Sequence record: SRR22947725_333
DNA: 64,000 nt
Strand: one strand, 5' to 3'
Within the stretch, counting starts at the first letter, position 1. Each line of letters begins with the position of its first letter. The notes below the pieces were generated by a model, which was not told where the DNA came from, did no database searches, and saw only the letters and a program-made list of their open reading frames with translations. Below, one piece after another: positions 36,390-41,403 of the stretch. Made by a program: the position numbers and the translations under genes.

Positions 36390-37880
36390 TTGTTCGACAA
36401 TCTTTCGGATCGCCTAAGCGGGACGTTCAAGAGCCTAAAGGGCAAGGGCAAGCTCTCCGCTGCCGATATCGACGAGACCCTCAGGGACATCCGACGTGCC
36501 CTGTTGGAGGCCGATGTCGCCCTCGAGGTGGTCAAGGACTTCATCGCAAGGATTCGCCAGCGCGCAATGGGGGACGAGGTCTCTAAGGCACTAAACCCCT
36601 CCCAGCAGGTAGTTCAGATTGTTCAAGACGAACTAATTGGCATTCTCGGGGGAGAAGCGAGGGAGCTCACATTCTCCAAGAACCCACCGACGGTTTTGAT
36701 GCTCGCAGGTCTTCAGGGTTCGGGTAAGACAACCCTTGCTGGGAAGCTCGCTAGGTGGCTAAAAGAGCAAAACCAGACGCCGTTGTTGGTCGCATGCGAC
36801 CTTCAACGACCAAATGCCGTGAATCAGCTTCAGGTGCTAGGTGAGAAGGTCGGGGTTCCGGTATTTGCTCCCGAGGCAGGTAACGGCTCAGGTGACCCCG
36901 TGGCGGTAGCCAAAAAAGGTGTCGAAAAGGCTAAAAAAGAGCAGCACTCTGTGGTGATCATCGACACTGCCGGTCGGACTGGTATCGACGAGGAGATGAT
37001 GAAGCAGGCGAGAGATATTCGCGATGCCACCTCTCCAGATGAAATGCTCTTTGTGATCGATTCAATGCTCGGTCAGGATGCGGTCAACGTTGCAAACGCC
37101 TTCAAGGATGGCGTTGGGGTAACAGGAGTGGTTCTGACCAAGCTCGATGGTGATGCGCGCGGTGGTGCGGCACTATCGGTTGCGACCATCACCGGGGCAC
37201 CAATTCTCTTTAGCTCAACAGGTGAGGGGCTAGAGGCCTTCGAGCCCTTCTACCCAGACCGCATGGCTAGCCGCATTTTGGACATGGGAGACATTCTCAC
37301 TCTTATCGAGCAGGCTCAGCGTGCCTTTGATGAAGAGGAGAGCGAGAAGCTCGCTCAAAAGATTGCCCAGGATCAGTTCACGCTGCAGGACTTTTTGGAC
37401 CAGATGCAGCAGCTGAAAAAGCTCGGCAGCATGAAGGGCATCATGGCCATGCTCCCGGGAGCCGGCCAGATGAAACAAAATCTTGAGGACTTCGACGAGA
37501 AGATGATTGACCGCACCGAAGCAATCATTCGGTCGATGACTCCGAAGGAACGCGAGCAACCCAAACTTCTCAACGGCTCTCGACGCATGAGGATTGCAAA
37601 GGGATCGGGAACAACGGTTACGGATGTGAATCAGCTAATGCAGCGCTTTGAGCAGGCCGCAAAGATGATGAAGACCATGGCTAAGGGTGGAGCGCCCACT
37701 CTTCCCGGCACTAACCCAGTGATGATGGGTGGCGCAAAGGGCGGCGGCTACATCGGCGGCAAGAAGAAGGACAAGAAGAAAAAGGGCTCCAAGAGCGGCA
37801 ACCCAGCCAAGCGTGCCGCCGAGAATGCCGGCCTCACCTTTGGCACTGACAACTCAAAAGGCAGTTCTTTCGGGCTTTGA
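36390..37880 (+). CDS. ffh: Signal recognition particle protein Ffh
   Basis: GLQGSGKTT, DLQRPNA, DTAGR, TKLDGDARGG, Met-rich M domain. Confidence 0.98.
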   Translation: MFDNLSDRLSGTFKSLKGKGKLSAADIDETLRDIRRALLEADVALEVVKDFIARIRQRAMGDEVSKALNPSQQVVQIVQDELIGILGGEARELTFSKNPPTVLMLAGLQGSGKTTLAGKLARWLKEQNQTPLLVACDLQRPNAVNQLQVLGEKVGVPVFAPEAGNGSGDPVAVAKKGVEKAKKEQHSVVIIDTAGRTGIDEEMMKQARDIRDATSPDEMLFVIDSMLGQDAVNVANAFKDGVGVTGVVLTKLDGDARGGAALSVATITGAPILFSSTGEGLEAFEPFYPDRMASRILDMGDILTLIEQAQRAFDEEESEKLAQKIAQDQFTLQDFLDQMQQLKKLGSMKGIMAMLPGAGQMKQNLEDFDEKMIDRTEAIIRSMTPKEREQPKLLNGSRRMRIAKGSGTTVTDVNQLMQRFEQAAKMMKTMAKGGAPTLPGTNPVMMGGAKGGGYIGGKKKDKKKKGSKSGNPAKRAAENAGLTFGTDNSKGSSFGL

Positions 37881-38028: not shown

Positions 38029-38703
38029 GTGGCTGTAAAGATCCGCCTAAAGCGCATTGGTAAGAAGCGCAACCCCCACTACCGCATCGTGGTAGCAGAT
38101 TCAAAAACACACCGTGACGGAAGAGTCATCGAGGAGATTGGTCGCTACGTACCAACCACCGACCCTTCAATCATTGAGGTCAACTCTGAGCGCGCTCAGT
38201 ACTGGCTATCCGTTGGCGCTCAGCCAACCGAGCCAGCTGCAGTAATTCTCAAGCTGACCGGTGATGTTGCCAACGAAAAGGGTGAGAAGAAGAACACCGT
38301 CAAGCCCCAGGCTACAAAAGAGACTTTCGCAGCGGACAGCAAGAAGAAGTCCGTAATCCTTCCAAAGGAAGAGAAGAAGTCAGAGCCTGTAAAGGAAGAG
38401 ACTCCAGTCGCAGAAGCTCCAGCCGAAGCTCCAGTGGCCGAAGAGGCTGCGGTAGCTGAGGAAACTTCAGCGGAGGCCCCAGCAGGGCCAGCAGCCGAGG
38501 CCACCGAGGCTCCTGCCGCAGAGGCAACTGCAGAGGCGCCTGTGGAAGAGACTCCAGCAGAGCCAGTAGCAGAAGCGCCAGCAGAAGAGGCCCCTGCGGC
38601 TGAGGTTGCAGAGGAAGCTCCTGCCGAGGCACCTGCAAGTGAGGAAGCTCCAGCTGAAGAGGCACCTGCCGCAGAGGCAGCTGAAGAGCCAAAGAGCGAG
38701 TAA
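38029..38703 (+). CDS. rpsP: 30S ribosomal protein S16 with long acidic Ala/Glu/Pro tail
   Basis: [25 protein letters not shown]...[10 protein letters not shown]. Confidence 0.97.
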
Positions 38704-38705
38704 TT

Positions 38706-38942
38706 ATGTTGCAGGCGACCCTCCAGCACCTTGTGCGAGCAATTGTCGACAATCCTGAGGATGCGACCGTTGAGCTTCGCACTATCGCGAAAAGCGAGTT
38801 GCTGGAGGTTCGTGTGCACCCAGATGACCTCGGTAGGGTCATCGGCAAAGGTGGCAGAACTGCCACCGCGCTAAGGACGATCATCAACGCCCTTGCCGGC
38901 GGCAAGCGCATTCGTGTAGACGTGGTGGATACCGATTACTAG
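38706..38942 (+). CDS. khpA: KH-domain RNA-binding protein
   Basis: VHPDDLGRVIGKGGRTATALR; usual position between rpsP and rimM. Confidence 0.92.
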   Translation: MLQATLQHLVRAIVDNPEDATVELRTIAKSELLEVRVHPDDLGRVIGKGGRTATALRTIINALAGGKRIRVDVVDTDY

Positions 38943-39486
38943 CACCACCAAGCTTCGGGTAGGCCGCCTGCTCAAAGCGCACGGCCTCAAGGGCGCAATC
39001 AAGCTGGAGCTTTACACCGACTCCCCAAACGAACGCTTCACCCCAGGAACAGTTCTAGAGCTGCAGGTTCCTGAGGACTCGCCCTGGCATGGGAAAACAG
39101 TCAAGGTAACCGAACTTCGTTGGTATAACACCATGCCTGTGCTGTTCTTGGATGGCATCAACGACCGCAACCAGGCCGAGAGTCTTATCCGTGCAATTCT
39201 GCTTGTTGAGGCAGATCTTGATGCCAGCCCACCTGAGCCTGAGGCCTGGTATGACCACCAGCTGGTTGGCCTAAAGGTTCACAGAGACGATGCAGAAATT
39301 GGCGAAATCGTGCGAGTTGACCACCTTCCAGCCCAGGATCTCCTTGCCATCAAGACGGAGTCTGGCGAGGTGCTGCTGCCATTTGTGAAGGCTTTTGTGC
39401 CAGAGGTTGATGTCCAAGCAGGCAAGGTAACCATTACTCCTCCTGGAGGCCTTTTTGAAGAGTTAGCTGAGCCAAATGAAGATTGA
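38935..39486 (+). CDS. rimM: Ribosome maturation factor RimM (non-canonical start, probably ATT at 38935)
   Basis: Frame open from 38920 encodes [24 protein letters not shown] (RimM N-terminus) upstream of the track ORF 39133-39486, which has the PRC-barrel part WYDHQLVGL...LLPFV...PPGGL. Confidence 0.9.
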
Positions 39487-40159
39487 CGCAATCAGCATTT
39501 TCCCCGAGTTCTTTGATGTTTTGGAGATCTCGCTTTTGGGCAAGGCCCAGGAAGCTGGGCTGATCTCGTTTGAGGCTCACAACCTGAGAGACTTCACTCA
39601 CGATAGGCACAAGACCGTGGACGACACCCCCTATGGCGGGGGAGCGGGCATGCTCATGAAGCCAGAGCCCTGGGGAGAGGCTTTTGACCAAATAATTGGC
39701 CAAGACCGTCCAGTTGTCATCTTCACCTCTCCTGCTGGAAAACCCTTCAATCAGGAGCTAGCCGGCGAGCTCTCCCAAAGAGAGCACCTGGTTTTTGCTT
39801 GCGGCAGATACGAGGGCATCGACCAGCGAGTGGTTGACTACGCGGGCACCATTGCACAAGTTCATGAGATTTCTATTGGCGACTATGTGCTAAACGGCGG
39901 CGAGGTTGCCGCTGTTGCCATGATCGAGGCCATTGCCAGACTGATTCCAGGGGTGATTGGAAACAACGAGTCGCTCGCCGAAGAATCCCACAACGAGGGT
40001 CTTTTGGAGGCCCCCAGCTACACCAAGCCACAAAGTTGGCGTGGCCTGGAGGTTCCGGAGATGCTGCTTTCCGGACACCATGCGGAAATCGAGAAATGGC
40101 GTAAGGCTCAGTCGCTTGAGCGCACCAAACAGAACCGGCCAGATTTACTCGATAAGTAG
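39476..40159 (+). CDS. trmD: tRNA (guanine-N1)-methyltransferase
   Basis: [33 protein letters not shown]. Confidence 0.98.
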
Positions 40160-40288: not shown

Positions 40289-40639
40289 ATGCACATTCTC
40301 GACTCAGTTGATGCCAAGAGCCTCAGGAGCGACATCCCAGACTTCCGTGCCGGAGATAACGTCAAGGTTCACGTAAACATCGTTGAGGGTAACCGCAGCC
40401 GTGTCCAGGTCTTCCAGGGAGTCGTAATCTCCCGCAGCGGCCACGGAGTTCGCGAGACTTTCACCGTTCGCAAGGTCTCTTTCCAGGTCGGCGTTGAGCG
40501 TACCTTCCCAGTACACAGCCCAGTTCTCGAGAAGATCGAACTGGTTTCCAAGGGAGACGTTCGCAGGGCAAAGCTCTACTACCTTCGCAACCTTCGCGGC
40601 AAGGCTGCCAAGATTCGCGAGAAGCGAGAGAACGCCTAA
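40289..40639 (+). CDS. rplS: 50S ribosomal protein L19
   Basis: [38 protein letters not shown]. Confidence 0.98.
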
Positions 40640-40653
40640 CTAAACTAGGCGTT

Positions 40654-41403
40654 ATGTCGTTTTCCGGGAGTCGCAGACCCCGCAGTAATTCCCTTTCAGC
40701 CCGTTGGCGCAGGTCATTTAGGCGCGCCCGGAAAAACGCCTTTCTCAGCTTCCTGATTGACTTCACTGTCATTGTGGGAACTGCGCTTGTGCTCTCGGTT
40801 GTCATCAAAGCTTTTCTCATTCGCAGCTTTTTCATCCCATCAGGTTCGATGCTCGACACCCTCGAGATCAACGACCGAATCATTGTCAATGTCCTAGCCC
40901 CAGAGGTAATGCCACTAGAGCGCGGGGACGTTGCGGTGTTCAGAGACCCAGGTGGTTGGCTGGGCGCTATCCCGACCCAAGAAAAGGACACCCTGACTGA
41001 GATCACGGACTTTGTTCTTGGCACCTTTGGAATAACAGCCCCCGACTCCGCCGAGCACCTTGTGAAGCGAGTAATCGGGCTGCCCGGTGACAGGGTGGTC
41101 TGCTGTGATGCGGATGGAAGGCTGACCATCAATGGTGTTGCAATCGATGAGCCCTACGTCCGCGGAGACGCCGCTCCCTCAGAAGTCGAATTTGATGTCA
41201 CGGTTCCTGAGGATCACTACTGGGTGATGGGAGATAATCGTCCAAACTCCACAGACTCTAGGTATCACCAAGATCTCCCCACAAAAGGCTTCGTACCAGT
41301 CGAGGTAGTGGTTGGCAGGGCGTTTGTGGTGAGCTGGCCAGTAGAGAACTGGGAGTTTTTGACCAACTATCCAGAGACCTTCGGTGACGTTCCCAAGCCT
41401 TGA
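40654..41403 (+). CDS. lepB: Signal peptidase I
   Basis: TM then IPSGSM (catalytic Ser), LVKRVIGLPGD, MGDNRPNSTDSR. Confidence 0.95.
   Translation: MSFSGSRRPRSNSLSARWRRSFRRARKNAFLSFLIDFTVIVGTALVLSVVIKAFLIRSFFIPSGSMLDTLEINDRIIVNVLAPEVMPLERGDVAVFRDPGGWLGAIPTQEKDTLTEITDFVLGTFGITAPDSAEHLVKRVIGLPGDRVVCCDADGRLTINGVAIDEPYVRGDAAPSEVEFDVTVPEDHYWVMGDNRPNSTDSRYHQDLPTKGFVPVEVVVGRAFVVSWPVENWEFLTNYPETFGDVPKP

Follow-up and report, generated by a model that had tools for sequence, protein, structure and literature searches.

Introduction

Few bacterial genes are known, to our knowledge, to begin at a conserved non-canonical start codon. Initiation factor IF3 lowers the use of AUU starts. In addition, where the stop of one gene overlaps the start of the next, as in ATGA, termination followed by re-initiation couples the translation of the two genes. 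In E. coli, the gene for the ribosome-assembly factor RimM has a canonical start, its low output being ascribed to folding of the mRNA, and Wikstrom and Bjork are said to have described non-coordinate translation in the E. coli trmD operon.

The closest described systems are infC and sigR. The infC gene starts with ATT in E. coli and with ATC in Streptomyces, and IF3 regulates its own synthesis (PMC5472188). The same paper describes Streptomyces sigR, whose conserved GTC start was shown by experiment to be repressed by IF3; this start determines the stoichiometry between sigR and a partner on the same transcript, and annotations routinely place it at a canonical codon nearby (PMC5472188). As for the rpsP-trmD operon, a 2024 review says that information on how it is regulated does not exist (PMC10931766).

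Here we analyze a stretch of DNA of 64,000 nucleotides (record SRR22947725_333, hereafter the window) in which rimM has no ATG, GTG or TTG where its protein should begin. An initial annotation made from the letters alone had proposed AUU initiation at position 38935 as its main reading, and this proposal finds strong support in the comparison of related genomes: the ATT at 38935 is very probably the rimM start codon. As with infC, this would be a gene of the translation apparatus for which a conserved AUU-type codon is the only possible start.

Results

The rpsP-khpA-rimM-trmD-rplS cluster

The genes considered here form a same-strand cluster on the plus strand of the window, flanked upstream by ffh (36390-37880) and downstream by a signal peptidase gene (40654-41403), both identified by their Pfam matches. 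The first gene of the cluster, rpsP (38029..38703), is an ORF for ribosomal protein S16 (bS16/uS16; PF00886 over residues 9-67 of 224, E 1.2e-24). Two nucleotides separate its stop from the ATG of khpA (38706..38942), an ORF for a KH-domain RNA-binding protein (PF13083 KH_KhpA-B, E 1.1e-19) whose 3′ end reads GAT TAC TAG, the stop occupying 38940-42. The rimM coding sequence as proposed here extends over 38935..39486 (183 codons plus TGA) and carries PF01782 and PF24986. The ATG of the trmD ORF (39476..40159; tRNA m1G methyltransferase; PF01746, E 2.1e-69) lies inside the 3′ end of rimM, which results in an 11-nt overlap, and rplS (40289..40639; ribosomal protein L19; PF01245, E 2.8e-49) is the last gene of the cluster. 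With S16, KhpA, TrmD and L19 flanking it on the same strand, the placement of rimM is typical for RimM. In a scan of one genome per species, the named locus nearest to the window belongs to an Aquiluna sp. (98% identity), which bears out the earlier assignment of this DNA to Aquiluna/Rhodoluna. A separate observation concerns the S16 protein: of its 224 residues, the ~150 that remain beyond the domain form a low-complexity C-terminal tail rich in Ala, Glu and Pro.

Candidate start codons of rimM

Upstream, the rimM frame is closed by a TAG (38917..38919, plus strand) that overlaps the third base of a Val codon of khpA; from 38920 the frame is open down to the TGA at 39484-86. The codons that follow the TAG are ACG TGG TGG ATA CCG ATT, which lead through ACT AGC ACC ACC AAG into CTT CGG GTA GGC. 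When ATG, GTG and TTG are admitted as starts, the sole ORF listed in this frame is 39133..39486 (117 aa), and its ATG (39133..39135), the first canonical in-frame start, is internal to RimM. Indeed, when the frame is read from 38920, the RimM N-terminal domain PF01782 covers residues 13-99, i.e., from 38956 onwards (E 1.4e-18), in a match that is nearly end to end (profile positions 1-83 of 84), while the second domain is the PRC-barrel PF24986 (E 1.8e-21). A product made from ATG 39133 would retain the PRC-barrel domain only, the N-terminal domain being absent.

Since the TAG closes the frame and the N-terminal domain begins at 38956, rimM must start within 38920-38955. This interval contains two near-cognate codons, ATA at 38929 and ATT at 38935, and no others. 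The ATT (38935..38937, plus strand) overlaps the last two khpA codons, and from ATT to TAG the two genes share 8 nt (ATTACTAG); a rimM start within a few nucleotides of the khpA stop is the geometry of a translationally coupled overlapping pair. On recheck, all positions given in the initial annotation for the TAG, the first in-frame ATG/GTG/TTG (39133), the GGTGGA element and the ATT, as well as the count of 183 codons, were correct, and its assertion that the RimM N-terminal domain lies upstream of ATG 39133 agrees with the PF01782 match. Our main reading, to which we give a probability of roughly 0.85 on comparative grounds, is that rimM is a normal, intact gene whose translation would begin at the AUU at 38935-37, read as fMet, 5 nt before the khpA stop.

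Integrity of the khpA-rimM junction

A gene without a visible start may be a damaged gene or a damaged assembly. In the first case, only the C-terminal 117 aa would be made from ATG 39133, which is after all the first canonical start, and the N-terminal domain would be a decaying remnant; in the second, the start would have been lost through an assembly error. Against decay stands, besides the end-to-end match of the N-terminal domain to its profile, the identity of 97-98% that RimM shows with the nearest genomes, three sister genomes in which the khpA-rimM junction is the same letter for letter. The same junction is present in ~100 independent assemblies, which speaks against an assembly error. 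We also checked the junction on the Logan contigs (not the raw reads) of four public runs from four studies, two of DNA and two of metatranscriptomes, over positions 38600-39300. In all four runs contigs bridge 38901-39005 or further, and those of the metatranscriptomes demonstrate that the junction is present in RNA libraries. Among the variants listed for these contigs, which are all but four of the variant places, none falls within 38901-38990, and no indel is found at the khpA-rimM junction. Thus, the assembly error at 38937 that the initial annotation wished to see checked is not supported, position 38937 having neither a listed variant nor an indel in the contigs.

The listed variants also bear on the N-terminal domain. 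In the part that is khpA only, eight of the nine variant places are third codon positions of khpA; from the khpA stop to ATG 39133, third positions of rimM codons account for 16 of 20. Given this concentration on third positions, the stretch of rimM that precedes the first ATG is under purifying selection as protein. We therefore regard both a truncated RimM and an assembly error as extremely improbable. It may be added, as an observation in itself, that the 90-nt stretch 38901-38990 is free of listed polymorphism and that both its flanks are rich in third-position variants.

The junction in Aquiluna, Rhodoluna and close relatives

The genus-level set consisted of 80 loci from Aquiluna, Rhodoluna and close relatives; as one of them (L099) begins inside rimM, 79 junctions were readable. 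An in-frame ATT over the end of khpA occurs in 77 of these 79 junctions (74 scored by script and 3 by eye), although this raw count overstates independence because the genomes compared are related. In 72 of the 74 script-scored ATT loci the ATT stands 5 nt before the khpA stop (GATT[TA]CTA[AG]), and in the other two (L078 and L079) it stands 2 nt before it (GATTAG). The two loci that have no ATT (L097 and L100) read GAC at the site, or ACT in the rimM frame, and carry an in-frame GTG in the codon directly upstream of the lost ATT (GGTGACTTC). Together with the 23 family loci described below that have ATT only, these data show that the ATT, whose conservation the initial annotation had proposed to examine, is kept in Aquiluna/Rhodoluna and in part of the Microbacteriaceae.

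In six loci (L053, L064, L078, L079, L087, and L108) a TGA or TAG occurs in the rimM frame two codons before the ATT, so that just AGA-CCG-ATT is open ahead of the conserved sequence. More generally, the open rimM frame lacks a canonical start altogether in 35 of the 76 loci scored by script. The remaining 41, i.e., 39 ATT loci plus L097 and L100 (GTG at -8), have a canonical codon whose place varies, from 8 to 41 nt ahead of the khpA stop. The 39 ATT loci with such a codon could use another start. We rejected the upstream canonical codons (ATG at -41, GTG at -26, TTG at -23, and others) as a conserved start, since their place changes from one genome to the next and a stop cuts them off from the domain in the window and in many relatives. 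One locus of the same genus (L016, from genome G019, which is 84% complete) has a single in-frame TAG in its rimM match, for which either an error of sequencing or a disrupted gene may account.

The junction across the Microbacteriaceae

RimM is encoded in 200 of the 201 Microbacteriaceae genomes surveyed. The family junction set comprised 80 genomes of 74 genera (of 95 sampled), taken from the 150 listed of 200 matches, with one or a few loci per genus chosen in order of similarity to the query. In 23 of the 80 loci, belonging to 19 genera, the in-frame ATT is present and the interval from the khpA stop to the domain is devoid of canonical starts; the resulting share of ~26% of genera is rough, given the way in which the loci were selected and the coverage of 74 out of 95 genera. 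In these ATT-only loci the ATT lies 5 nt before the khpA stop, except in L117, where the distance is 8 nt. One locus (L158) carries an ATG at exactly the ATT position (GATGCC). Counting L097 and L100 as well, three relatives thus have a canonical codon, ATG or GTG, in place of the ATT or next to it.

Six further loci of the family (L122, L123, L136, L143, L146, and L150) have both the ATT and a GTG 4-7 nt after the khpA stop, and read GTC GTC or GTC ATC upstream in place of GTG GTG; these may be intermediates between the two start types. In the remaining 50 loci a canonical start lies at or after the khpA stop, and in six of these khpA and rimM share the same frame with a stop between them. 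Several family loci also possess a canonical codon further upstream in the open frame and could likewise begin elsewhere than at the ATT. The linker from the ATT to the conserved LRVGR motif measures 6 to 20 codons and is always open and in frame. The Leu codon of LRVGR was considered as a start and rejected: some loci of the family have TTG there, whereas Aquiluna has CTT or CTC. Outside the family, a locus from another family of the order (L030, genome G035) has a rimM with no canonical start nearby; its sole candidate in the open frame upstream of LVVGR is a CTG, 19 codons before the Gly.

The distribution of the start types was placed on a quick maximum-likelihood tree of KhpA, RimM and TrmD from which the junction columns were omitted; this tree is unrooted and does not give the direction of change. 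The ATT-only state is scattered over it, with 8 changes, at least 4 of which are forced by branches with SH-aLRT >=95. This scatter suggests that the ATT-only state and a canonical start have been swapped for one another several times.

The data of the two sets bear directly on an alternative put forward in the initial annotation, according to which a programmed shift of the reading frame by +1, shortly before khpA ends, would yield a KhpA-RimM fusion of ~29 kDa, with rimM having no start of its own. The frameshift of prfB, with which such an event may be compared, relies on a conserved slippery P-site codon before the stop and on an SD-like element about 3 nt upstream. Here, rimM does lie in the +1 frame relative to khpA, the two frames overlap, and a G-rich element is found upstream. 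However, there is no conserved slippery site: the last khpA codon is TTC, TAC or TCC, and there is none in L078 and L079, where the stop comes directly after GAT. Counted from the A of the fixed ATT, the khpA stop follows at 2, 5 or 8 nt; GGTGG is 9 nt from the last sense codon instead of the ~3 nt of prfB. Furthermore, the ATG of L158 and the GTG of L097 and L100, at or beside the ATT position, point to initiation, and in 50 family loci out of 80 rimM has a canonical start of its own, including the six that share the frame of khpA across a stop. Finally, no KH domain was found in the best 120 RimM relatives of near length (156 to 214 aa). Four longer forms were found between 322 and 2000 aa, none with a KH domain, but this second search says little about a fusion, since at ~260 aa the latter would fall outside the range. 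With the stop moving around a fixed ATT and no slippery codon conserved, we see hardly any chance of a frameshift of this kind.

Constraint on the letters ATT

The middle T of the ATT is also the third position of a khpA Asp codon (codon -2), where GAC would serve the protein equally. As a synonymous-site control, we compared khpA codons in the 72 Aquiluna/Rhodoluna loci having the ATT in the -5 register and in 22 ATT-only family loci. Codon -2 is GAT in all 72 of the former and in all 22 of the latter. On the other hand, the Asp codon two positions upstream (codon -4) reads GAT in 37 Aquiluna/Rhodoluna loci, GAC in 29 and another codon in 6, and in the family GAC prevails over GAT (14 against 8). 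At the Val codon -8, whose third base gives the TAG of the window, this position varies freely in Aquiluna/Rhodoluna, as indicated by the counts of A (31), T (21), C (16) and G (4). In the seven genes of the window itself, 40 of 97 Asp codons are GAT. The last KhpA residue varies (Phe, Tyr or Ser), and its codon always begins with T, the third letter of the ATT. The Asp-codon control thus indicates that the constraint acts on the letters ATT and not on the KhpA protein. At the level of such comparisons, a strong selective constraint on exactly ATT is shown for Aquiluna and Rhodoluna and for roughly one in four of the Microbacteriaceae genera sampled.

The same loci allow ATT to be weighed against ATA (38929..38931, plus strand), two codons upstream, as the place where translation starts. 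ATA is in frame and is a permitted start in table 11, and NCBI proteins P0002 and P0033 begin there (MPITSTTK..., 185 aa in the record of a near-identical Aquiluna RimM). Yet it is present in just 37 of the 72 Aquiluna/Rhodoluna loci in the -5 register and in 8 of the 22 ATT-only family loci; in relatives it often reads ACA, because the khpA codon that overlaps it is the variable codon -4. In the six loci with a stop two codons before the ATT, the site is AGA and follows that stop directly. In the window, moreover, ATA abuts GGTGG with no spacer in between. We judge that ATA is not the conserved start and that initiation there is very unlikely. AUU initiation at 38935 stays our preferred reading, and the frameshift fusion, the ATA start and the assembly error are all poorly supported.

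The SD-like element and a predicted hairpin

An SD-like GGTGG (38924..38928, plus strand) lies 6 nt before the ATT, inside the Val-Val-Asp codons of khpA; if counted as GGTGGA (38924-29), its spacing to the ATT at 38935-37 is 5 nt. A shorter motif, matching in 3 of 4 genomes (a first pattern matched in 0 of 4), confirmed the 3′ tail of the 16S rRNA in this genus. The duplex of GGTGG with this tail has an energy of -6.3 kcal/mol, as against -4.0 kcal/mol for the GTC GTC form and -7.9 kcal/mol for the infC SD. As this energy is matched by 26% of random 21-mers drawn from the window, we rejected GGTGG as a clear Shine-Dalgarno sequence. GGTGG is present in 21 of the 23 ATT-only family loci vs 1 of the 57 others; on the tree, this association amounts to four independent contrasts on supported branches and is not significant (sign test, p 0.125). 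In addition, some Rhodoluna loci read GTA GTA at this site yet keep the ATT. The SD-like element reported in the initial annotation is therefore real as a motif but not as a strong signal, its energy being not unusual, and GGTGG may be at most a weak helper.

The letters around the ATT can also be drawn as a hairpin (38922..38948, plus strand) in which GUGGUG (38922-27) would pair with CACCAC (38943-48), leaving the AUU and the khpA UAG in a loop of 15 nt. The arms are a perfect 6-bp inverted repeat (GTGGTG/CACCAC) around the ATT and the khpA TAG. Nevertheless, the predicted fold of 91 nt around the AUU is no better than that of shuffled sequences (z -0.51). Aquiluna loci keep the repeat where ACC ACC follows the stop, Rhodoluna loci do not keep it, and the 3′ arm is absent from many relatives. 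Overall, the case for a hairpin around the AUU is weak.

RimM starts in database records

The NCBI RimM of several Herbiconiux species begins MTE[NQ][NK]KTQLRVGR, which corresponds to the ATT position, and so does one NCBI RimM from a metagenome-assembled genome (MAG), which begins MSSSTKLRV. On the other hand, the start is placed at an ATG within khpA in the record of Cnuibacter (100% identical to L277) and in one of Salinibacterium. Databases thus already begin some RimM proteins at the ATT, ahead of the literature, and the annotation is inconsistent. A search of full-text literature, most subscription journals lying outside its coverage, found no description of a non-canonical rimM start.

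Some further observations on these records may be reported. The orthologous RimM records start at five places, namely the ATT, the ATA, an upstream ATG in khpA, an upstream TTG or GTG, and the Leu codon of LRVGR; records with varying starts are P0002, P0026, P0126, P0129, P0140, and P0153. Two RimM records named for one species differ in length (196 aa vs 188 aa). An NCBI MAG RimM of 156 aa (P0033) is near-identical to the protein of the window and is without ~29 residues of the N-terminal domain (...ERFAPGTV / LFLDGI...).

Discussion

On the preferred reading, AUU initiation at 38935, ribosomes would reach the rimM AUU mainly through the translation of khpA. Two routes can be envisaged: (i) ribosomes terminating at khpA would re-initiate nearby at the AUU, or (ii) the translation of khpA would open the mRNA, so that 30S subunits could bind the weak GGUGG. 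In either case the AUU would be decoded by initiator tRNA, and the overlap with the khpA stop would couple the translation of rimM to that of khpA. Because IF3 discriminates against AUU, RimM would be made at a small fraction of the output of S16 and KhpA. The AUU start and the overlap could together set a low ratio of RimM to KhpA and S16 from a single mRNA.

By analogy with infC and sigR, we infer that IF3 may damp the synthesis of RimM and tie it to the quality of the 30S subunits. According to one study, immature 30S subunits in E. coli rbfA and ksgA deletion strains evade the start-codon proofreading of IF3 and use non-canonical codons more (PMC6868393). By extension of the infC analogy, the rimM AUU might act as a sensor of 30S quality within a homeostatic loop: a shortage of RimM would cause immature 30S subunits to accumulate, these would initiate more often at the rimM AUU, and RimM would be restored. 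Such a loop would have been kept across the Microbacteriaceae, with a plain GTG start taking its place on several occasions. We offer this last proposal as a tentative one and consider it rather unlikely.

The infC genes of relatives show the classic arrangement for autoregulation by IF3, so that these bacteria possess the means both to read AUU starts and to restrain them. In the closest relative (L193), infC has just 13 open codons before the IF3 N-terminal domain and no canonical start among them; the sequence reads AGGAG, a spacing of 5 nt and ATT, the only possible start. In a congener (L191) the corresponding codon is ATC. The SD ahead of infC in these two genomes is AGGAG or GAGGAG.

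RimM is a ribosome-assembly factor, the proposed start codon of its gene is under visible selection across a family, and the relatives in which GTG or ATG replaces the ATT are natural controls. The rimM AUU also offers a testable case for the low output of the non-ribosomal genes in the rpsP-trmD cluster. As for annotation, the discordant starts of RimM records would be brought into line by one rule, namely to take the ATT that overlaps the khpA stop.

How does rimM compare with the known systems? It shares with genes of the infC and pcnB kind that no other start is available, that the codon is conserved beyond the needs of the overlap, and that relatives carry canonical replacements. On this comparative evidence, rimM is well supported as one of the few genes that keep an AUU start, and the kind of mechanism is not new. 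In these bacteria, infC has a strong AGGAG or GAGGAG SD and stands apart from the preceding ORF, whereas the ATT of rimM overlaps the khpA stop and has a weak SD-like element. Like sigR, rimM is an actinobacterial gene with a conserved non-canonical start, and its starts in databases are likewise inconsistent; the two differ in the codon (GTC vs ATT), in the pathway and in the kind of evidence, the sigR start being known by experiment and that of rimM by comparison of sequences. With coupled overlapping genes it has in common an 8-nt overlap within a tight run of genes (a 2-nt gap between rpsP and khpA, an 11-nt overlap between rimM and trmD), but the restart codon would be AUU, not AUG or GUG, and coupling is deduced from this geometry. 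Finally, the E. coli trmD operon (rpsP-rimM-trmD-rplS) is the same cluster, with the same need for much less RimM and TrmD than S16 and L19, and differs in that no khpA lies between rpsP and rimM.
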